DNA of 64,000 bases, taken from assembly GCF_003790525.1 (NCBI RefSeq), contig NZ_CP033635.1; one strand, written 5' to 3'. This DNA is from Escherichia coli (lineage in GTDB: Bacteria; Pseudomonadota; Gammaproteobacteria; Enterobacterales; Enterobacteriaceae). The notes below the pieces were generated by a model. That model searched no databases. It was not told the origin of the DNA and was given only the letters and a program-made list of their open reading frames with translations. Shown here piece by piece: positions 7,445-53,550 of the stretch. The position numbers were made by a program, and so were the translations under genes. Position 1 is the first letter of the stretch, and every line of letters begins with the position of its first letter.

Positions 7445-8068
7445 TCACGCCGGTTTCAGGTCCGGTTCAATCAGACTGTAGACCTGCTGGTTAAGTGCTG
7501 GCGCATTTGCCAGTTCATGGATATGTGCGGCGACATCGGCACGGTGAACAAAACCATGACACTCCTGATTTTGTATCCGTTGTGCTTTGCCCGTTGCCGC
7601 CCCATCAAGCAGACCGCCAGGGCGGAGAATGGCATAATCAAGCTGGCTGGTTTGCAACCAGCTTTCCGCCAGCGTTTTTTCCCGTACCGCCTGACCAAAC
7701 GCAGCCTTTGCCCGCTCTGATAAAAACGGCCAGCTATCGCCGCATCCCAAAGAGGTCACCAGAATCATGCGACTGATGCCAGCCTTCTCGGCCTCGTCAA
7801 TCACTGTTCTGTGCGCCAGATAATCCTGAGCTCCGCCCATTGTTGAGATGATAAGCGCATCCGGGCCAGCTGCGCGGCAAGCAGCCGCGACTACGCTGGC
7901 ATCACAGGCGTCGCCTGTAAAAACCTGTACGCCTTGTTGCGCCAGTTTCGTGGCGGCATCAGCATGACGAATGACAGCAACGACCGGACGTTGTTCCGCC
8001 AGCGCCAGTTCAAGCGTTCTGGCACCCACACCTTTTCCGCCTGCGCCAAAGAGTAGCCACGGCGTCAT
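7445..8068 (-). CDS. chuY: ChuY, NAD(P)-binding protein of the haem utilisation operon
   Basis: 207-aa ORF with N-terminal Rossmann-like glycine motif (FGAGGKGVGA); position between chuX and chuU. Confidence 0.8.
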   Translation of the reverse strand: MTPWLLFGAGGKGVGARTLELALAEQRPVVAVIRHADAATKLAQQGVQVFTGDACDASVVAAACRAAGPDALIISTMGGAQDYLAHRTVIDEAEKAGISRMILVTSLGCGDSWPFLSERAKAAFGQAVREKTLAESWLQTSQLDYAILRPGGLLDGAATGKAQRIQNQECHGFVHRADVAAHIHELANAPALNQQVYSLIEPDLKPA

Positions 8069-8574: not shown

Positions 8575-9912
8575 TTATGGTTTTTCACGCACAATCGCTG
8601 GCGCATTAAGTACCTGAATTAGTTCATTAAGAGACTGCAAAATATTGCTTGCCCAGAAACGACCTTCATTAGTCAGCCGCAGGCAAGTTGACGCATCGCG
8701 GCTTAAGCCTTTTTGGTGCCATTGAGCCAGTAACGGCGCGAGTTTTTCGGCATGTGGCGTAAGTTCGTCCAGCGGTACACGCGCTGTTTCAACACCTGAC
8801 TGCAAGGTATGACGCCATTGCGCATCACGTTCGGCGTTACGCATGATCATCATCAGCGGTTTTTTGCCTGCCGCGACGGATTCATGCCAGGTCTGAAGAT
8901 TGCGTTCGTTCATCCAGGAGTAACCATTAATCGAACCACCGGCTCCGGAACCAAAGGCCAGACAATCGGCACCTTGTTTTATCAGCAGGTTATAGAGATT
9001 GCGTTCGCGTGTGGTACGGCCCCAGTGGCTGTTACTGATGCAGCGCCAACCGGCATCGTCCATAAAATCACACCCTTGCAGGTAAAGATCGCGACGTTCT
9101 GCCGGAGAGGGCACGGTAGTACGCCCATTTTCCACGGCTTTGCCCAGCGGTGTATTGGGCAGGACATTGAGCGCATAGAGATCGACGCCGTCGAGACCGA
9201 TATCGCGGGCAATAGCCAGATCTTCTCCCCAGGTTTGCGCATCCTGACCCGGCAGACCAAACAGCAGGTCACAGACCACCGCGGCACGGTCGCGTTTAAC
9301 CAGGCTTTCCATAAACGCAATAGCGGTTGGGCCATCCGAGGTGCGGGCCATTTTCTTGCGGATTTTGCTGTTAAACGACTGAATACCAATTGAGAAGCGG
9401 TTTGCTCCAGCATCAAGGCAAGCATCGATTCGCTCAGCGTCAAAATTCAGTACCCGGCCTTCGATAGTGATTTCACAATCAGGGGCCAGTGGCAGCTTTT
9501 CTCGTAATGTGGTGATGATTCTGGCCAAATCGTGTGCCGAAAGCGCGGAAGGCGTACCGCCACCGAAATAGACCGCGTGGATGGGGGCAGACTGATGCAA
9601 TACGCTGTCTGCTTCCAGTTCTATTTCACGAATCAGGGCGTCGGTATAATGAGCACACGCATCTTCATTAAAACGGTTCTGATAAAAACCACAAAACGTG
9701 CAGTGTGTCGCACAAAAAGGAATGTGTAGGTAAACCAGTCGCTTACGTGGTGATACCGTTTGATTGATCATCTCTTGCCAGGTCTGTGCCAGTTGCTCTT
9801 TGGCAACCGGAATGGCCCCACGAAACGGCATCATGGCGCGCCTGTCTTTAAAGGGCTGATCACCGTCTAAAGCAAAATGTGGCGTGAGATCCAGGGTGTT
9901 ATTTGTGTTCAT
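8575..9912 (-). CDS. chuW: ChuW, radical-SAM HemN-like enzyme (anaerobic haem degradation)
   Basis: 445-aa ORF with radical SAM cysteine motif CATHCTFC (CxxxCxxC), HemN-like. Confidence 0.85.
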   Translation of the reverse strand: MNTNNTLDLTPHFALDGDQPFKDRRAMMPFRGAIPVAKEQLAQTWQEMINQTVSPRKRLVYLHIPFCATHCTFCGFYQNRFNEDACAHYTDALIREIELEADSVLHQSAPIHAVYFGGGTPSALSAHDLARIITTLREKLPLAPDCEITIEGRVLNFDAERIDACLDAGANRFSIGIQSFNSKIRKKMARTSDGPTAIAFMESLVKRDRAAVVCDLLFGLPGQDAQTWGEDLAIARDIGLDGVDLYALNVLPNTPLGKAVENGRTTVPSPAERRDLYLQGCDFMDDAGWRCISNSHWGRTTRERNLYNLLIKQGADCLAFGSGAGGSINGYSWMNERNLQTWHESVAAGKKPLMMIMRNAERDAQWRHTLQSGVETARVPLDELTPHAEKLAPLLAQWHQKGLSRDASTCLRLTNEGRFWASNILQSLNELIQVLNAPAIVREKP

Positions 9913-44305: not shown

Positions 44306-44536
44306 TTGGATCAAATATTTAAATCTCCTGTTCCTCAAGGGATTAAGTGGTCTGATATAGAGTCACTGGTTAAAGCATTAGGCGGAGAAATTAAGGAAGG
44401 AAGAGGTTCGCGTTGTAAGTTCATACTAAATATGAGCGTTGCGTGTTTCCATCGGCCTCATCCGTCGCCAGATACCGATAAAGGCGCTGTAGAAAGCGTG
44501 CGTGACTGGTTACTAAGTATAGGGGTAAAACCATGA
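44306..44536 (+). CDS. putative HicA/YcfA-like toxin
   Basis: 76-aa ORF (TTG start) with ...IKWSDIESLVKALGG...GS...HRPHP... resembling the HicA mRNA-interferase fold pattern; 4-nt ATGA overlap with the downstream antitoxin-like gene; start uncertain (SD plus ATG at 44262 is in another frame). Confidence 0.45.
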   Translation: MDQIFKSPVPQGIKWSDIESLVKALGGEIKEGRGSRCKFILNMSVACFHRPHPSPDTDKGAVESVRDWLLSIGVKP

Positions 44537-44892
44537 TCAAACTGAAGACGCCAAACTCTATGGAGATTGCCGGGCAACCTGCTGTTATCACTTACGTGCC
44601 AGAACTGAATGCATTTCGTGGCAAATTCCTGGGCTTGTCAGGTTATTGTGATTTTGTCTCTGACAGCATTCAGGGGCTGCAAAAAGAAGGGGAGCTTTCC
44701 CTGCGAGAGTATCTTGAGGATTGTAAAGCTGCGGGTATTGAGCCGTATGCGCGTACAGAAAAGATTAAGACCTTTACATTACGCTATCCAGAATCGCTGA
44801 GTGAACGCCTTAATAATGCGGCTGCGCAGCAACAAGTCTCTGTAAATACTTATATTATTGAAACGCTAAATGAGCGTTTGAATCATTTATAA
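44533..44892 (+). CDS. putative HicB-like antitoxin with C-terminal ribbon-helix-helix region
   Basis: 119-aa ORF; N-terminal HicB/UPF0150-like region (PAVITYVPELNAFRGKFLGLSGYCDFV) and C-terminal DNA-binding-like tail (SLSERLNNAAAQQQVSVNTYIIETLNERL). Confidence 0.55.
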   Translation: MIKLKTPNSMEIAGQPAVITYVPELNAFRGKFLGLSGYCDFVSDSIQGLQKEGELSLREYLEDCKAAGIEPYARTEKIKTFTLRYPESLSERLNNAAAQQQVSVNTYIIETLNERLNHL

Positions 44893-44894
44893 CT

Positions 44895-44934
44895 TATAGC
44901 GGCCCAACAATTTCTGTTGCGCCGCTATATTTTT
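44895..44934 (+). terminator. intrinsic terminator after the HicB-like gene
   Basis: stem tatagcggc / gccgctata with inner caaca/tgttg stem, followed by tttttg. Confidence 0.5.
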
Positions 44935-44941
44935 GTGGCTC

Positions 44942-45802
44942 TTAAGATGCCTTTCTAATCAATCGATGCCCCTCATTCATCATCAGGATTTTGCTATACA
45001 CATCTTCCTCGACGGCATTTTTTGCTGATGCCATCACTCGTGCCAGATTCGCCTCGTTGTGATTATTCACATACGCTTTGCCGACGGCAGTGATAAACGC
45101 TTTGCGCAGATCGCTGGCGATATTCACTTTAGCGACGCGATAATTAACGAAACTGCGTAATATCTCCGGGGCGATACCGGAGCCGCCGTGAATAACCAGC
45201 GGCACCGGGCTGACTTCGGCAATGCGCTTCAGCAGGGGGATATCGATCCGCGGTATATCGTCCAGGCCATGAACGTTACCAATAGAAACTGCCAGCATGT
45301 CGCAACCGGTGCGTTCGACAAAGGTCTTCACCTTTTCCGGTTCCGTTTTGCAATCGGCTTCGCTGACGTGATCGTCTTCTTTGCCGAGAATCGCCCCCAG
45401 CTCCGCTTCAACCGGTACGCCATAGGATTTACAGAAATCGACAGCTTCCTGGGTGAAAGCGATATTCTCTTCAAAAGAGAATGCGGCACCGTCAATCATG
45501 ACCGAGGTAAAGCCCGCGCGCACCGCCTGTTTAACATCCTCCTGAGTTTTCCCGTGATCAAGATGAAGACTGACCGGAACATCCATTTTATCAGCGTGAC
45601 GTTTCACGATTTCATAAATGTAATCGTATCCCGACAGTTGTGCATTGGTGGGCGCAATCTGAATGAAGTTGGGTAATCCTGAACGCTCAATGGCGTTTAA
45701 AATTGAAATCGTTGTCTCCAGATTGGTGGTATTAAATGCGCCCGCTAATACCCGTTTTTCCTGAATGCGGTCGAGCAGTATCCGTCCATTAACTAATGGC
45801 AT
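44942..45802 (-). CDS. class II ketose-bisphosphate aldolase (GatY/KbaY/FbaA family)
   Basis: 286-aa ORF MPLVNGRILLDRIQEKRVLAGAFN... with class II aldolase features (HLDHG, VIHGGSG); last gene of the PTS operon. Confidence 0.85.
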   Translation of the reverse strand: MPLVNGRILLDRIQEKRVLAGAFNTTNLETTISILNAIERSGLPNFIQIAPTNAQLSGYDYIYEIVKRHADKMDVPVSLHLDHGKTQEDVKQAVRAGFTSVMIDGAAFSFEENIAFTQEAVDFCKSYGVPVEAELGAILGKEDDHVSEADCKTEPEKVKTFVERTGCDMLAVSIGNVHGLDDIPRIDIPLLKRIAEVSPVPLVIHGGSGIAPEILRSFVNYRVAKVNIASDLRKAFITAVGKAYVNNHNEANLARVMASAKNAVEEDVYSKILMMNEGHRLIRKAS

Positions 45803-45833
45803 ATTGAAAACCTCATCTTTTAATATCAGTTAA

Positions 45834-46103
45834 TTATTCAGCTTCACCGAAGCGGTCGCGAAATAAGGTAGTGAGAGTTTGTATTGCCTCGTTTTCATCA
45901 TCACCTTCGCAGCGTATTTCCACCGTTTTTCCGCCTTTTATTCCGGCGCGCATAATATTCATCATGCTGGTGGCATTAATATCATTACCTTCATAATGCA
46001 GCGTCACTTTACAGCTATATTTTTTGGCGGCTTTCGCCAGACAGGCCGCCGGACGTGCATGCAGGCCAGTACTGTTTCTGACCTCCACGGTTTTACTCAA
46101 CAT
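45834..46103 (-). CDS. HPr-like phosphocarrier protein (PTS)
   Basis: 89-aa ORF with HPr active-site context NSTGLHARPAACL (His15 equivalent). Confidence 0.8.
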   Translation of the reverse strand: MLSKTVEVRNSTGLHARPAACLAKAAKKYSCKVTLHYEGNDINATSMMNIMRAGIKGGKTVEIRCEGDDENEAIQTLTTLFRDRFGEAE

Positions 46104-47601
46104 AGTGCTCCTCCCGATGATGTAATGGCATCACGCCTTCTTGCTGTAATTTCAACTGATACCAGCTTTTCCATTTGTGCTGATAACGCTGTAATTGATG
46201 GTATCTCGCCCGATTCGGTAACAAACGTTGGGCTATGGTGACTTGCGGCGGTGGAATATCCGGTGCGGCGGTTAATAATGCTCCGACAGAAACCGCCTCG
46301 TTAAATGCAATTGCTTCAACCGGACGCTGTAAAATATCCGCCTTTAATTGCAGCCAAAGGGGATTACGGGTTGCCGGACCTATCACTTTTAACGCGCTGG
46401 TGCCGGGCACATTAAAACAGGCGAAGCAGTTGGCAAATTCCATGGTTAATCCCAGTGAGACGCTGGCAATTAACATATCGATATTTAACGTATCGCCAAG
46501 CCCATAAAATAATCCTCGGGTATGGCGATTTTTATAGGGCGAACCCGAACCGCGAAGATGCGGAATAAAAACGGGAATGTCATCGAGCGACCAGTTCCCC
46601 GCCAGGTAATCCGCATGTCCGCGAGTAAGTGATGCGGCGATCTCCTCATCGGTTAGCCGGAACGTGTTGCGCAGCCACTCCAGAGCGAAACCGCCCACCG
46701 GCAGCGACGCAAACAGGGTGAACTGGTTTGCAAGCGAATAACAGCCGTTTGCCAGCTTGTCACGTTTGGCATGTTCATCCAGCGTCGGTTGTGTATCCAG
46801 TTGCAGAATGCCTTCTGTGGTGCCCGTCGAGTTAAGGATATCGCCCGGCGTCATCTGCAACGCCCGCGCACCCACCATATGGTCATGCCCGGCCAGCGTC
46901 ACGCTGACCGGTTGCAAGAACCCAAGCGTTTTGCAGAGCGACTCGCTGACCCATCCGGCGTGCTCGCCTGGCTGCACCAATGGCGCAAATGCTGAACAGG
47001 GAACGTGTAACAACGCCGCCGCTTTCGCTGACCATTCGCCTTTACGCACGTCCAGACACAGCGTACGGCTGGCTAAGGTGATATCCGTACGCTGTTCGCC
47101 AGTCAGCCGCCAGAGCAGTACTTCCGGCGCATGTAGCCAACGCAGGCCGCGGCGATTACGCAGTGGATAATGCTCCAGCAACCAACGCATTTTGAAGGCA
47201 GAGTAATTGCTGTGCAGCGGTAGCCCGCAGATGTCATAAAGCGCCGCACTGTCTGCCTCACTAAGCGTTGCCAGGTACTCTTCACCGCGGCGGTCATACC
47301 ATGCCAGCATTGGCGTCAGGATCTCGCCATGCTCGTCAAGAAACACCCCTGACTCGCCAAAACTGGCAATGCTTATCCGCCTGACCGGCAGCGGCGAAGC
47401 GGCGCTCAGTTGCGCTATTGCCTGGCGGACCTCCTGCCAGAGGGCGTCGATATCGAAATCGACATCGCCCTGTGGGGAGATCTGTTTTGCCGTCACGAAT
47501 TTATGCGCGCCCAACGTCGTTGCATCCAGGCAGGAAAAGCAGGTGACTTTGCAATTGGTGGTGCCAATATCGATAACGATAGCTGCGCTGTTATCAGGCA
47601 T
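46093..47601 (-). CDS. FGGY-family carbohydrate kinase
   Basis: 502-aa ORF; N-terminal AIVIDIGTTNCK and LAWYDRRG blocks typical of FGGY kinases; overlaps flanking genes by 8-11 nt. Confidence 0.8.
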   Translation of the reverse strand: MPDNSAAIVIDIGTTNCKVTCFSCLDATTLGAHKFVTAKQISPQGDVDFDIDALWQEVRQAIAQLSAASPLPVRRISIASFGESGVFLDEHGEILTPMLAWYDRRGEEYLATLSEADSAALYDICGLPLHSNYSAFKMRWLLEHYPLRNRRGLRWLHAPEVLLWRLTGEQRTDITLASRTLCLDVRKGEWSAKAAALLHVPCSAFAPLVQPGEHAGWVSESLCKTLGFLQPVSVTLAGHDHMVGARALQMTPGDILNSTGTTEGILQLDTQPTLDEHAKRDKLANGCYSLANQFTLFASLPVGGFALEWLRNTFRLTDEEIAASLTRGHADYLAGNWSLDDIPVFIPHLRGSGSPYKNRHTRGLFYGLGDTLNIDMLIASVSLGLTMEFANCFACFNVPGTSALKVIGPATRNPLWLQLKADILQRPVEAIAFNEAVSVGALLTAAPDIPPPQVTIAQRLLPNRARYHQLQRYQHKWKSWYQLKLQQEGVMPLHHREEHYVE

Positions 47602-48952
47602 AAACCGTGCTCCGCGTCATTCGGAAAATGCCATACAGTACCAGGGCGATAACCGGCACCAGACCAATGGCGATGAGATTGCCGTTGAAGATTTCCAGCA
47701 GCCAGAAGCGGAACGGGTTACCGCCATCAAGGAAACTGGAAACCTGGCCGCTGGAGCCTTCGGCAAATTTGAAGTTAACGTCTTTCGCCATTCCGGTAAT
47801 AAACGGCGCGATTTTAGTGGCAATCCACAGGTCGGCAATAATCACCGGGATCGCCGCCAGAACGGTGCGGAAAATATTGCCACGGCTGGCTAAAGCAATC
47901 ATCGACGCCATTACCGCCAGGTTGGCAAGGTCACCAAGCGGCAGGACTTCATTACCTGGGAGGACAAACGCGATAAAGACCGAGATTGGCGTCAGCAGCA
48001 GGGCGGTGGAGATAATCGCCGGGTTACCTACGGCAACGGCGATATCCAGGCCGATATAGAGATCGTCACGGTCAGGGTATTTGGCATTGAGATACTTTTT
48101 AATGGCTTCAGACAGCGGTAATAAACCTTCCATCAGGATGCGTACCATGCGTGGCAGGATGAACATCACACCGCCAATGCTGATGCCAAGCAGCAAGACT
48201 TTTTTGAAATCGTATCCGGCAATTACGCCGAGCAGAATGCCCAGAATAGTGCCAACCATCATCGGTTCGCCGAAGATGCCAAACTTTTTCTGTACGGTTT
48301 CCGGGTCGATATGAATACGATTGAGGCCAGGGATATGGTCGATGATTTTGTCGACCAGCAGACCGACCGGGAAGAACACCACCGAAGAGAGCGTCGGCAA
48401 TGAGATCCCTTCCAGGCCAAAGTATTTTTGTACCAGTGGCGCAGACCAGTCGGCGAGTTTTAGCACCACCACTGCGGCAATCGCGGCCGCCAGCAAACCA
48501 AAGAACAGGCTGCCGGTGCTGTAATAAACCAGCGTACCGGCAAGGGCAAAATGCCAGTAGTTCCACATATCTACATCAACGGTGCGGGTTTTATTCAACG
48601 CCAGCATTGCGACATTAATCAGAATGGTCAGGGGAATAACAAACGGGGCAATTGGCGACCCCCAGGTAATGGCAGAAAGCGGCGGCCAGCCTAAATCCAC
48701 CACCGGTAAATTAATTCCGGTGCGTTCAACCATCGCCTGGGCCGCTGGCCCGACATTGCTGGTAAGAATATCGAAAATGGCATAAATACCGACAAAACCA
48801 ATGCCGACCGTTAATGACGAGCGTAAGGCTTTAGCGGGTTTTACTTTAAAACAGAGAGCAAGAATAAATAACACCAACGGCAACATTACCGTGGGGCCAA
48901 ATCCCAATATATATTGCACAATATTATAGAGGGTATGCGCGATATCGTTCAT
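47594..48952 (-). CDS. PTS EIIC component, galactitol (Gat/Sgc) family
   Basis: 452 aa from MNDIAHTLYNIVQYILGFGPTVMLP; polytopic, collinear with GatC-type EIIC; the track ORF adds 10 upstream codons. Confidence 0.85.
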   Translation of the reverse strand: MNDIAHTLYNIVQYILGFGPTVMLPLVLFILALCFKVKPAKALRSSLTVGIGFVGIYAIFDILTSNVGPAAQAMVERTGINLPVVDLGWPPLSAITWGSPIAPFVIPLTILINVAMLALNKTRTVDVDMWNYWHFALAGTLVYYSTGSLFFGLLAAAIAAVVVLKLADWSAPLVQKYFGLEGISLPTLSSVVFFPVGLLVDKIIDHIPGLNRIHIDPETVQKKFGIFGEPMMVGTILGILLGVIAGYDFKKVLLLGISIGGVMFILPRMVRILMEGLLPLSEAIKKYLNAKYPDRDDLYIGLDIAVAVGNPAIISTALLLTPISVFIAFVLPGNEVLPLGDLANLAVMASMIALASRGNIFRTVLAAIPVIIADLWIATKIAPFITGMAKDVNFKFAEGSSGQVSSFLDGGNPFRFWLLEIFNGNLIAIGLVPVIALVLYGIFRMTRSTVYA

Positions 48953-49025
48953 AATAAACCTCTTTTTCAGGCGAGAGCGCACCTCGCGTTAGCGCCTGAT
49001 GGAGTGGGTTGGAATTAATTATTAA

Positions 49026-49307
49026 TTACTTTTTAAGAATCGAAACAATTTGCGCCAGCACTTTCTCTTCGCCAATACCGGTAATAATGGGTAAGCCGTT
49101 AACCACCGGCACGTCGAGTTCATAAGGCACTTTAGTCGTTGAAACAACCAGCGCTACGCCGTCGGTATTACCGGGTAAAGAGGCAACGTTGGTTTGGGAA
49201 TAATTGACGTTAAGGCCGTGCTCTTTGCAATACTCCATGACTTTTTCTGTTACCGCCGTGGATGTGGCAATACCTGTGGCGCAGACAAATAAAATGGTTT
49301 GACTCAT
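49026..49307 (-). CDS. PTS EIIB component (Gat/Sga-type)
   Basis: 93-aa ORF with phospho-cysteine context ILFVCATGIATS near the N-terminus. Confidence 0.85.
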   Translation of the reverse strand: MSQTILFVCATGIATSTAVTEKVMEYCKEHGLNVNYSQTNVASLPGNTDGVALVVSTTKVPYELDVPVVNGLPIITGIGEEKVLAQIVSILKK

Positions 49308-49777
49308 ATTTCACCTCGTTCATTCATTTTGTTTAAGATTACTGTGTGTATTTCTGTTGTTTCCATCGTAAGCAAGGCTTGCATAAAGGGCGTATCCTGA
49401 ATCATCTCCATAATCCAGCCCAGGGCATTTAATTGTTTGTTACTTTCGCTTAAGGCGAGCAAAAAAATCACCCTGACAGGCACGGGATCAGGGTCGCCGC
49501 CCATATCGGCAAACTCTACCGGCTCTGGCAAAATACCGACGGCAATTGCATTGTGCCGGACATGTTTATGGTCCGTGTGCGGAATGGCGACGCACGGTGG
49601 TTCGGTAGGCAGCCCCGTTGGATACGTCGCCTCACGTTTCAGTACGTGATTGGCAAAATCAGGGACCACCAGCTCAGCAGCAACCAACGGTTGCGCTAAC
49701 TGACGGATGATCTGTTCAACGCTTAACCCTGCCGGAAGTCGTTGAATATAATTTTCCTGAAACTGTATGCCTTGCAT
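49304..49777 (-). CDS. PTS EIIA component (fructose/mannitol-type EIIA)
   Basis: Start at ATG 49777 with SD AGGA (MQGIQFQENYI); phospho-histidine context VAIPHTDHKH; 4-nt overlap with the EIIB gene. Confidence 0.8.
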   Translation of the reverse strand: MQGIQFQENYIQRLPAGLSVEQIIRQLAQPLVAAELVVPDFANHVLKREATYPTGLPTEPPCVAIPHTDHKHVRHNAIAVGILPEPVEFADMGGDPDPVPVRVIFLLALSESNKQLNALGWIMEMIQDTPFMQALLTMETTEIHTVILNKMNERGEI

Positions 49778-49801
49778 TTTATTCCTCATAAAAAAGTGTA
49801 T

Positions 49802-50557
49802 TTAACTCACTTCCCGCCGTTGCAGCACGGTGCCCAGATAATATTTATTTCCTTTTAACCAGACGTTGCCAAACTCAACGGGTAACTCTCGGGAGAAAAA
49901 GACTAACTGCTCCAGATGCAAAACGGGTGCATCTTCACTGATATCTAAAAAATGACCGCGTTCATTACCAATTAATCGCGCGGCATAGCGACTTTCCGAG
50001 TAACGAATTTTTCTTTGCGACAAACTTTCTATTGTTGGAAATAAATTGTGTTGATTAAAATCGATTTCCACGATGCCGGGGCATAGCTCAATATTGATAC
50101 GGTTCTCTATCAGCATCGCTTTTTCATCACCAATTGAACGTAAACGCTCAAGGTAAAGAATATCCTGACCGGGCGTTATTCTTAATTTCTCTGCCACATA
50201 ACGATTAGCCGGTTCAATCCGTGACGTAATAACTTCAGTGGTAAAATGTATTTTCTGGCTTTCCAGCGATTCCGCGAATGACAATAATCCTTCACCTAAC
50301 GGATATGCCACGTTCTCTTTTTTGACAAAAGTTCCCTTCCCCTGGACCTGAATCAACACGCCTTCTTTTACCAGTTGGGCGACCGCTTTTTTAACGGTTC
50401 CCCGACTCACTTCCAGCATATCCATAATCTGGTATTCCGAAGGAATGCGATCGTCTTCCACCAGATCCCCGGTATAAATACTTTCTCTTATCCACTCCAC
50501 CACTTGTTGATAGAGCGGTATTTGTGACGACTTACTTAATGATTTCATGGCGCGCAC
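49802..50557 (-). CDS. GntR/HutC-family transcriptional regulator
   Basis: 251-aa ORF; N-terminal winged HTH (IPSEYQIMDMLEVSRGTVKKAVAQLVKEG) and C-terminal UTRA-like effector domain; 12 nt upstream of the EIIA gene. Confidence 0.85.
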   Translation of the reverse strand: MRAMKSLSKSSQIPLYQQVVEWIRESIYTGDLVEDDRIPSEYQIMDMLEVSRGTVKKAVAQLVKEGVLIQVQGKGTFVKKENVAYPLGEGLLSFAESLESQKIHFTTEVITSRIEPANRYVAEKLRITPGQDILYLERLRSIGDEKAMLIENRINIELCPGIVEIDFNQHNLFPTIESLSQRKIRYSESRYAARLIGNERGHFLDISEDAPVLHLEQLVFFSRELPVEFGNVWLKGNKYYLGTVLQRREVS

Positions 50558-50571
50558 CTGAACATTTACAG

Positions 50572-50585
50572 TTGTCTATGGACAA
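50572..50585. promoter_or_regulatory. candidate GntR-family operator (perfect inverted repeat TTGTC-N4-GACAA)
   Basis: ttgtctatggacaa 15 bp upstream of the regulator start, followed by a further GGACAAC half-site. Confidence 0.4.
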
Positions 50586-50746
50586 TCATGGACAACTTCA
50601 AGCGTATAGTAGGTGAACGGGAGAAAAAGAGGATCGAAGCGTCTCACATTTTGAGGGACCAAATCGTGATCAAAAAAATGTGACGTGAGTCGATATTTGG
50701 CAGGAATTTACTGCGCCGTCAGGAAATAACGGCGCGTGGGTAGGTG

Positions 50747-53550
<2,804 letters not shown>

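Follow-up and report, generated by a model that had tools for sequence, protein, structure and literature searches.

We examined a 64,000-nt stretch of Escherichia coli DNA (contig NZ_CP033635.1 of assembly GCF_003790525.1; hereafter, the window) at the interval between yhhJ (42981-44189, plus strand) and nikR (50747-51148, minus strand). These two genes flank seven open reading frames, all on the minus strand, for a regulator, three components of a phosphoenolpyruvate-dependent phosphotransferase system (PTS), a carbohydrate kinase of the FGGY family, an HPr paralog and a class II aldolase. All seven are intact and span 44942-50548 when gene starts are taken to be consistent with the Prokaryotic Genome Annotation Pipeline (PGAP); PGAP calls the same seven genes in O157:H7, Nissle 1917 and strain CS5L. 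The first-pass annotation of the window had named the same seven products, and NCBIfam family matches bear out each of these identities. By increasing coordinate, the genes are:

44942-45802, minus strand: class II (zinc) ketose-bisphosphate aldolase of the NF005943/PRK07998 family (NF005943, 556 bits; cut-off 364)
45834-46103, minus strand: dedicated HPr paralog (TIGR01003, 103.5 bits; cut-off 47.9), with His15 and Ser46 present
46093-47601, minus strand: FGGY-family carbohydrate kinase (PF00370 and PF02782), proposed to be a ketose-phosphate 1-kinase
47594-48952, minus strand: PTS permease EIIC of the Gat family, TC 4.A.5 (TIGR00827 EIIC-GAT, 476 bits)
49026-49307, minus strand: PTS component EIIB, galactitol type (NF007643 match; Cys9 aligned to the GatB cysteine)
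49304-49777, minus strand: PTS component EIIA, PTS_EIIA_2, fructose/mannitol/galactitol type (NCBIfam GatA and FruA-IIA matches; AIPH motif aligned to K-12 GatA)
49802-50548, minus strand: GntR/HutC-family regulator with helix-turn-helix and UTRA effector domains, first gene of the operon (NCBIfam HutC/PhnF/TreR-type matches)

The spacing of these genes is that of a single operon, as had been proposed, with overlaps of 4 nt (EIIA/EIIB), 8 nt (EIIC/FGGY) and 11 nt (FGGY/HPr) and gaps of 24 nt (GntR to EIIA), 73 nt (EIIB to EIIC) and 31 nt (HPr to aldolase). In K-12 the same junction reads nikR-rhsB-yhhH-yrhC'-yhhI-yhhJ, which confirms the rhsB/yhhH/yhhI content that the first-pass annotation had given, and the cluster thus replaces rhsB-yhhH-yhhI between yhhJ and nikR. 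The suggestion that it is strain-variable accessory DNA was also correct: at a coverage of at least 80%, it is present in 1631 of 5426 complete E. coli genomes (~30%), chromosomal every time, and carriers include O157:H7, CFT073 and Nissle 1917. The ratio of nonsynonymous to synonymous substitution rates (dN/dS) between E. coli alleles was 0-0.21 over the seven genes (~0.06 for the kinase), which amounts to purifying selection. Since this holds for all seven genes, the operon is intact and maintained by selection. The same cluster corresponds to Z4874-Z4880 of EDL933 and c4276-c4280 of CFT073, these tags being taken from papers that describe matching gene products. Salmonella STM3779-STM3785 contains the same seven genes, but with the order of HPr and aldolase swapped and in a position adjacent to uhp rather than nikR; we presume this numbering from gene content, the uhp-adjacent position and the LT2 map.

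The PTS has the features of the Gat family, with an EIIC-GAT domain (TIGR00827, E 8e-143; PF03611 is found on orthologs) and with the EIIA histidine and the EIIB cysteine on separate proteins. None of the galactitol-specific cut-offs was reached (GatA 57 against 139 bits, GatB 60 against 95, EIIC-GAT 476 against 542). All phosphorelay residues are in place, namely HPr His15, the histidine in the AIPH motif of EIIA, and EIIB Cys9. The claim that the operon has an HPr of its own is upheld by a TIGR01003 score above cut-off together with His15; the protein has the GxHARPA signature of the HPr family, and its GLHARPA motif is kept in the Salmonella and Erwinia copies. The EIIC is 76-78% identical to those of Enterococcus clusters of the same type, and 55-58% to those of a related, dehydrogenase-containing type described below. 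The end of the EIIC gene overlaps the start of the kinase gene by 8 nt (47594-47601), as it also does in Salmonella and Enterococcus (8001-8008 of locus L003 and 9001-9008 of locus L004). Conservation over this range suggests that translation of permease and kinase is coupled.

The kinase has the hallmarks of the FGGY superfamily: two domains, an N-terminal DxGTT phosphate loop, a catalytic Asp and a GT-T loop. Invariant within its own family are D11-G13-T15-K18, AGHDHM (D240) and LNSTGTTE (G260-T261). It scored under the cut-off of every NCBIfam FGGY equivalog, with XylB as the top match (146 against 380 bits), and matched none of XylB, GlpK, FucK, RhaB, GntK, LsrK and AraB at the equivalog level. 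Its identity to E. coli FucK, RhaB, XylB, LyxK and GlpK is at most 23%. When a profile of the kinase family was compared with the E. coli paralogs, FucK came out on top with 168 bits, against 155 bits for XylB; an actinobacterial partner kinase, to which we return below, scored 39 bits. The kinase shares with FucK and RhaB a His-Asp dyad that is absent from XylB and GlpK, and its family has an ASRT motif in common with GlpK. An AlphaFold model with a predicted local distance difference test (pLDDT) value of 90.6 retrieved glycerol, xylulose and gluconate kinases from the PDB in Foldseek (template modeling score ~0.8, 18-22% identity). Neither Foldseek nor a PDB sequence search discriminated between specificities, with glycerol kinases among the nearest structures. 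Judged by its sequence, the kinase is a complete FGGY enzyme of an uncharacterised subfamily, without a close characterised relative.

The aldolase shares D82, H83, H178, H205, E142, S208, K225 and N227 with GatY, KbaY and YdjI. These include what is expected of a PF01116 enzyme, namely three histidines as zinc ligands, a catalytic Asp and a site for the phosphate of dihydroxyacetone phosphate (DHAP). The loss of catalytic motifs from either enzyme had been named beforehand as an argument against the pathway; the alignments show these motifs intact in both the kinase and the aldolase. The GatY, KbaY and FBA models all scored under their cut-offs (GatY 239 against 383 bits, KbaY 182 against 542), identity is 36% to KbaY (structure 1GVF) and 32% to GatY, and the cluster contains no gene for a GatZ/KbaZ-type partner. 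The aldolase, too, belongs to an uncharacterised subfamily. At the position of KbaY Arg257, described for the AgaY structure as a contact of the distal phosphate, the family has Arg in Enterobacterales and Actinobacteria and Lys in Firmicutes, and YdjI has Leu. YdjI cleaves a monophosphate substrate, a 1-phosphate with a carboxylate end, and the basic residue is consistent with a bisphosphate substrate for the present enzyme. We also observed that Nissle-type genomes lack the hicAB genes found next to the aldolase gene in the window, and that their match to the window begins at 44960, a position that lies 18 nt within the aldolase gene at its 3' end. Since the boundary of hicAB presence or absence falls within this 3' end, the C-terminus of the aldolase is altered (286 amino acids in the window, 283 in Nissle).

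The regulator has full-length matches to the HutC, PhnF and TreR models, all below the cut-offs, and its orthologs, that of Salmonella included, carry PF00392 and PF07702 (GntR and UTRA). Its ATG at 50548 is preceded by AGGTG, is kept in orthologs and agrees with PGAP. The protein is a probable repressor. Three elements in the non-coding DNA at the two ends of the operon may be relevant to its control:

50571-50597, minus strand: candidate operator AGTTGTCCATGATTGTCCATAGACAAC, read from the sequence, 23-49 nt upstream of the GntR start
50633-50648, minus strand: CRP-like site TGTGAgacgctTCGAT, upstream of the operator, with its TGTGA half conserved in orthologs
44895-44929, no strand assigned: predicted shared terminator, inverted repeat TATAGCGGC-C-CAACA...TGTTG-C-GCCGCTATA, between the convergent stops of hicB and the aldolase gene

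The candidate operator holds a direct TTGTCCAT repeat and the palindrome TTGTC-CATA-GACAA. Across the Enterobacterales orthologous loci examined, AGTTGTACATGATTGTCYATAGACAAC is conserved while the flanks diverge, and the loci of Firmicutes and Gilliamella have repeated TTGTAYA boxes. Binding of GntR to this element is probable, and CRP probably adds catabolite control. A scan of 44150-50800 for consensus promoters and terminators gave counts at the level of shuffled sequence and nothing useful upstream of GntR. The inverted repeat at 44895-44929, which was not reported by the terminator scan and is followed by a T-run on the plus strand only, is a probable terminator for both hicB and the aldolase gene. 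Relative to M9-glucose, expression of Z4875, Z4876, Z4877 and Z4879 in EDL933 is 2-4 log2 units higher in the contents of the bovine rumen, small intestine and rectum (PMC6199705). The operon is thus expressed and regulated; the rise in the bovine gut could reflect either induction by a gut compound or release from catabolite repression. In Salmonella, the island STM3779-STM3785 is reported to be repressed by H-NS (PMC3604774).

To place the operon among its relatives, one genome per species was scanned with an alignment of the kinase family, which yielded 80 loci in three phyla. A PF01116 aldolase adjoins the kinase in all loci with enough flanking sequence; the sole locus without one is a 1.3-kb contig. 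The loci fall into three architectures. Type A (34 loci) consists of a regulator, mostly GntR, with EIIA, EIIB, EIIC, FGGY kinase and aldolase, and has no linked dehydrogenase; it occurs in E. coli, Citrobacter, K. oxytoca, Cedecea, Rahnella, the avium group of Enterococcus, Selenomonas, Centipeda, Pectinatus and Tetragenococcus, with an HPr gene in the clusters of Enterobacterales. The loci of Salmonella and Listeria, which were fetched separately, also have this layout. Type B (28 loci; Erwinia, Pantoea, Raoultella, Serratia, Gilliamella, Bacillus and Oceanobacillus) has the same genes together with a zinc dehydrogenase or two; for the second of these, the top match is the galactitol-1-phosphate dehydrogenase GatD (230-238 bits). 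Some type B loci also have SurE. Type C (17 actinobacterial loci) has no PTS and instead the arrangement aldolase-FGGY-XylB-like kinase, usually accompanied by a GntR/UTRA regulator, a zinc dehydrogenase, and a polyol-type transporter of the RbtT/DalT family within the major facilitator superfamily or a transporter of the ABC (ATP-binding cassette) class. The XylB-like partner scores 304 bits to XylB and has the xylulokinase motif GGGDNAA. No isomerase or epimerase is conserved in the neighborhood of any of the three types.

Within Enterobacterales, the aldolases of types A and B are 80-91% identical and mix in the tree, and the GntR proteins are 67-72% identical, compared with 55-58% for EIIC and 36-38% for the kinase. 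This suggests a common back end (regulator, aldolase and HPr) that is served by differing front ends. With such a shared back end, types A and B perhaps also have the same bisphosphate and the same effector. In type C, a second kinase stands where types A and B have the PTS, so that two phosphorylations would precede the aldolase; going by gene content, the PTS appears to be functionally exchangeable with a second kinase. Type B fits the logic of the gat pathway, in which a polyol is converted to a polyol phosphate, a ketose phosphate and then a bisphosphate. Since a dehydrogenase is absent from every type A lineage, type A most simply takes up a free ketose.

Divergence is uneven along the operon. 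Between Salmonella and E. coli, identity is 89% for EIIC, 89% for the aldolase, 84% for EIIB, 82% for GntR, 63% for the kinase, 61% for EIIA and 47% for HPr. Together with the swapped order of HPr and aldolase in Salmonella and the contrast in G+C content between the kinase (0.546) and GntR (0.427) genes, this suggests that segments were replaced by recombination (45834-47601 and 49304-49777 of the window, compared with loci L003 and L013-L029). Two further observations concern additional kinases near these clusters. Directly downstream of the type A cluster of Enterococcus raffinosus (11896-20640 of locus L035; similar in L036 and L037) lies a second NF005943 aldolase (427 bits), followed by a large regulator, an apparent mannose-type PTS (by size and order), a zinc dehydrogenase and, with 350 bits, a XylB-like kinase. 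Such a set may represent the pathway in a fourth architecture. In many actinobacterial loci (L046, L059, L061, L068, L076, L077, L079, L080, L084 and L088, of Microbacteriaceae), the XylB-like kinase is followed by a third, distant FGGY kinase, which is 23-27% identical to the E. coli kinase and which no NCBIfam model matches at E 1e-25 or better.

We propose that the operon most likely serves to import a rare keto-sugar, to phosphorylate it twice and to cleave the product into glycolytic trioses, and that the substrate is most likely a ketohexose other than fructose. To a mechanism with a doubly phosphorylated ketose (a 1,omega-bisphosphate), which the first-pass annotation had already suggested, we assign a probability of about 0.6; it is supported by the linkage of kinase and aldolase, the second kinase of type C, and the basic residue at the KbaY Arg257 position. 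Phosphate would pass from phosphoenolpyruvate via enzyme I to the operon's own HPr (His15), then to EIIA (AIPH histidine) and EIIB (Cys9). The Gat-family EIIC would import the sugar and phosphorylate the end distal to the keto group, after which the FGGY kinase would use ATP to phosphorylate C1. The zinc aldolase would then split the ketose 1,omega-bisphosphate into DHAP and an aldose phosphate, which for a D-hexulose would be glyceraldehyde 3-phosphate. The HutC-type GntR would repress transcription at TTGTC-CATA-GACAA until a phosphorylated intermediate binds its UTRA domain, with CRP probably supplying catabolite control. The carbon phosphorylated at each step, the identity of the substrate and the repression by GntR are what we infer here.

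Enzymes of the xylulokinase class phosphorylate the primary hydroxyl distal to the keto group, and a class II DHAP-dependent aldolase requires a phosphate at C1. Because the XylB-like partner would act distally and the aldolase needs the C1 phosphate, the latter would have to come from the FGGY family studied here. FucK and RhaB phosphorylate C1 of 2-ketoses, and the FucK/RhaB-type dyad, with FucK as the top paralog, is consistent with C1 phosphorylation by the operon kinase.

Several points weigh against this mechanism. We know of no FGGY enzyme that accepts a sugar phosphate, and the known second kinases FruK, TagK and LacC are PfkB enzymes. The regiochemistry would follow from one shared motif and from analogy. 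Moreover, Gat-family PTSs can phosphorylate C1, as with D-tagatose in B. licheniformis, whose tagatose cluster also uses a Gat-family PTS, so that the order of the two phosphorylations could be reversed. The kinase is also much more diverged than its neighbors (36-38% identity between E. coli and Enterococcus, compared with 76% for EIIC and ~70% for the aldolase), so that members of the family may differ in function. Finally, we found no growth phenotype tied to the locus in the literature.

The first-pass annotation had regarded the composition of the operon as unusual. This holds for the presence of an FGGY instead of a PfkB kinase, but the logic of PTS, sugar-phosphate kinase and class II aldolase is known from the fructose and D-tagatose pathways; the cluster is a variant of this pathway type, with an FGGY enzyme in place of the usual PfkB kinase. 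The FGGY fold and the His-Asp dyad (GHD/SHD) are shared with FucK and RhaB, of which FucK is the top E. coli paralog, but identity to the operon kinase is only 23% and 17%, far under the equivalog cut-offs, and the substrates of these enzymes are free deoxy-ketoses; their partners are class II aldolases of the adducin type rather than PF01116 aldolases or a PTS. Like the operon, gatYZABCDR combines Gat-family EIIA, EIIB and EIIC with a class II aldolase. A comparison of the yhhJ-nikR interval with K-12 gatYZABCD shows that GatD, GatZ and the DeoR-type GatR are missing from the operon, with a GatD-type zinc dehydrogenase present in the dehydrogenase-containing relatives (Erwinia, Raoultella, Bacillus). 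In addition, the second phosphorylation of the gat pathway is left to PfkA, whereas the operon has its own FGGY kinase and HPr. The frz operon of extraintestinal pathogenic E. coli has a fructose-type PTS, an MgA-type activator, a ROK kinase, two aldolases and a cupin, a description that the gene content of the present operon, with its Gat-type PTS, GntR, FGGY kinase, single aldolase and HPr, does not fit. The PTS-dependent D-tagatose pathways (K. oxytoca tagKTH with gatYZ, and a five-gene cluster of B. licheniformis; PMC9720028) also use a PTS, an ATP-dependent kinase that forms a 1,6-bisphosphate, and a class II aldolase that yields DHAP and glyceraldehyde 3-phosphate. They differ in that TagK is a PfkB enzyme acting on the 1-phosphate, while the only kinase of the operon is FGGY and no GatZ-type partner is encoded. 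The vpe genes were rejected as a match, since they sit in the deoK island (ROD 40, with the deoK operon, in NCTC 86; PMC5382810) and the present cluster lies between yhhJ and nikR.

Pentuloses and tetruloses were set aside as substrates, since phosphoglycolaldehyde or a one-carbon fragment would result when their bisphosphates are cleaved, and we take neither to be a normal central metabolite. A role of the aldolase as a tagatose-6-phosphate 4-epimerase was likewise rejected, as such epimerases are GatZ-like (PF08013) and not PF01116 proteins. Full-text searches of the literature gave no substrate assignment for the cluster. The Salmonella island has been described as a complete PTS of unknown specificity, acquired by the ancestor of S. 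enterica subspecies enterica (PMC3604774); STM3780-85 were listed under unknown sugars in a 2024 transcriptome paper (PMC11000858), and CFT073 c4276-c4280 were counted among uncharacterised gene sets (PMC2831201). The D-tagatose cluster of Nissle is of the ABC type and lies between accC and yhdT, a locus different from that of the present operon; its deletion abolishes growth on and consumption of tagatose (PMC9720028). Because Nissle without this cluster cannot use tagatose despite carrying the operon, D-tagatose is disfavoured as the substrate, but the operon might simply not have been induced in that experiment. Nissle also grows on D-psicose, which K-12 does not, in a study that assigns no genes to this trait (PMC7924626). 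Known psicose routes use AlsE; that of K. pneumoniae (permease, ribokinase-type kinase and AlsE) is a different system. We regard D-psicose as a lead rather than a result, since the tag cluster or another locus could explain the growth of Nissle equally well.

We considered three other explanations for the operon. In a scheme resembling fructolysis, the PTS would form a ketose 1-phosphate, the aldolase would release DHAP and a free aldehyde, e.g., glyceraldehyde, and the FGGY enzyme would be a triose or small-polyol kinase, with no bisphosphate involved. Free small substrates are known for FGGY kinases, and such a role would fit with glycerol kinases being among the nearest solved structures and with the ASRT motif shared with GlpK; the exchangeability of PTS and kinase would be explained equally well. 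This scheme is nonetheless unlikely, because the xylulokinase-like actinobacterial partner would act distally and leave the aldolase without a C1 phosphate, the aldolase is basic at the KbaY Arg257 position, unlike YdjI, and the kinase has the dyad of FucK and RhaB and not the AGDQQ of GlpK. It is quite unlikely, in turn, that the E. coli cluster acts on a hexitol by means of a polyol-phosphate dehydrogenase encoded elsewhere in the genome. The PTS is indeed of the galactitol family, and the dehydrogenase-containing clusters of Enterobacterales are very close in their aldolases and GntR proteins. However, a linked dehydrogenase was found in 0 of 34 type A loci, spread over Enterobacterales, Enterococcus, Selenomonadales and other Firmicutes, and the type A EIICs form a group of their own, with 76% identity between E. 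coli and Enterococcus against 55-58% to the dehydrogenase type.

Orphan PTS clusters are common in E. coli, and the operon could also be a paralog of the systems for fructose or tagatose that is redundant or cryptic, without a distinct substrate and mostly silent like the frv, frw, fry and sgc clusters of K-12. The reported repression of the Salmonella island by H-NS (PMC3604774) would agree with this, as would the fact that no phenotype assignment was found in the literature. We consider this very unlikely, given the strong purifying selection on the seven genes, the conservation of module and operator across three phyla, and the induction of transcripts in bovine gut contents. Furthermore, the Nissle 1917 tag-cluster mutant neither grows on nor consumes D-tagatose, though Nissle carries the operon (PMC9720028).

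Between yhhJ and the aldolase gene lies a toxin-antitoxin pair, hicA (44262-44536) and hicB (44533-44892). Compared with O157:H7, one nucleotide is missing from a poly-A run in the hicA of the window at ~44296 (A7 to A6), a deletion that frameshifts the toxin, and hicB is intact. In strain CS5L, which is 100% identical, hicA carries a frameshift mark from PGAP as well. In CS5L an IS1 is found between hicB and the aldolase gene (1224-1922 of locus L097, corresponding to ~44893-44941 of the window), which is absent from the window. Repeated TGATGTCATA / TGAAGTCATA boxes at 44213-44251, upstream of hicA, may be the HicB operator. PADLOC returned no matches for hicA, hicB, the kinase and the aldolase, and a defence-system reading of these four genes was ruled out on this basis.

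Identification of the substrate would reveal a nutrient niche that matters for colonisation of the gut and for the competition of E. coli with Salmonella, and could have a bearing on the fate of rare-sugar sweeteners there. The comparative map provides a shortlist for assays, namely the ketohexose 6-phosphates and their hexitols. That orphan PTS operons are common in E. coli limits the surprise; the interest lies in the wide distribution, the modular pattern and the possible new FGGY activity. In its furthest form, our proposal would make the kinase a ketose-omega-phosphate 1-kinase, and with it the first FGGY enzyme to take a sugar phosphate as substrate, within an undescribed pathway of three phyla in which ketoses (via a PTS), hexitols (via a PTS and a dehydrogenase) and polyols (via a transporter and two kinases) converge on one non-fructose ketohexose 1,6-bisphosphate, with D-psicose (D-allulose) as the substrate in E. 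coli and Salmonella by an AlsE-independent route that would explain why Nissle and not K-12 grows on it. This full combination is conceivable but doubtful. If the proposed activity is true, the FGGY family would be extended to sugar-phosphate substrates.

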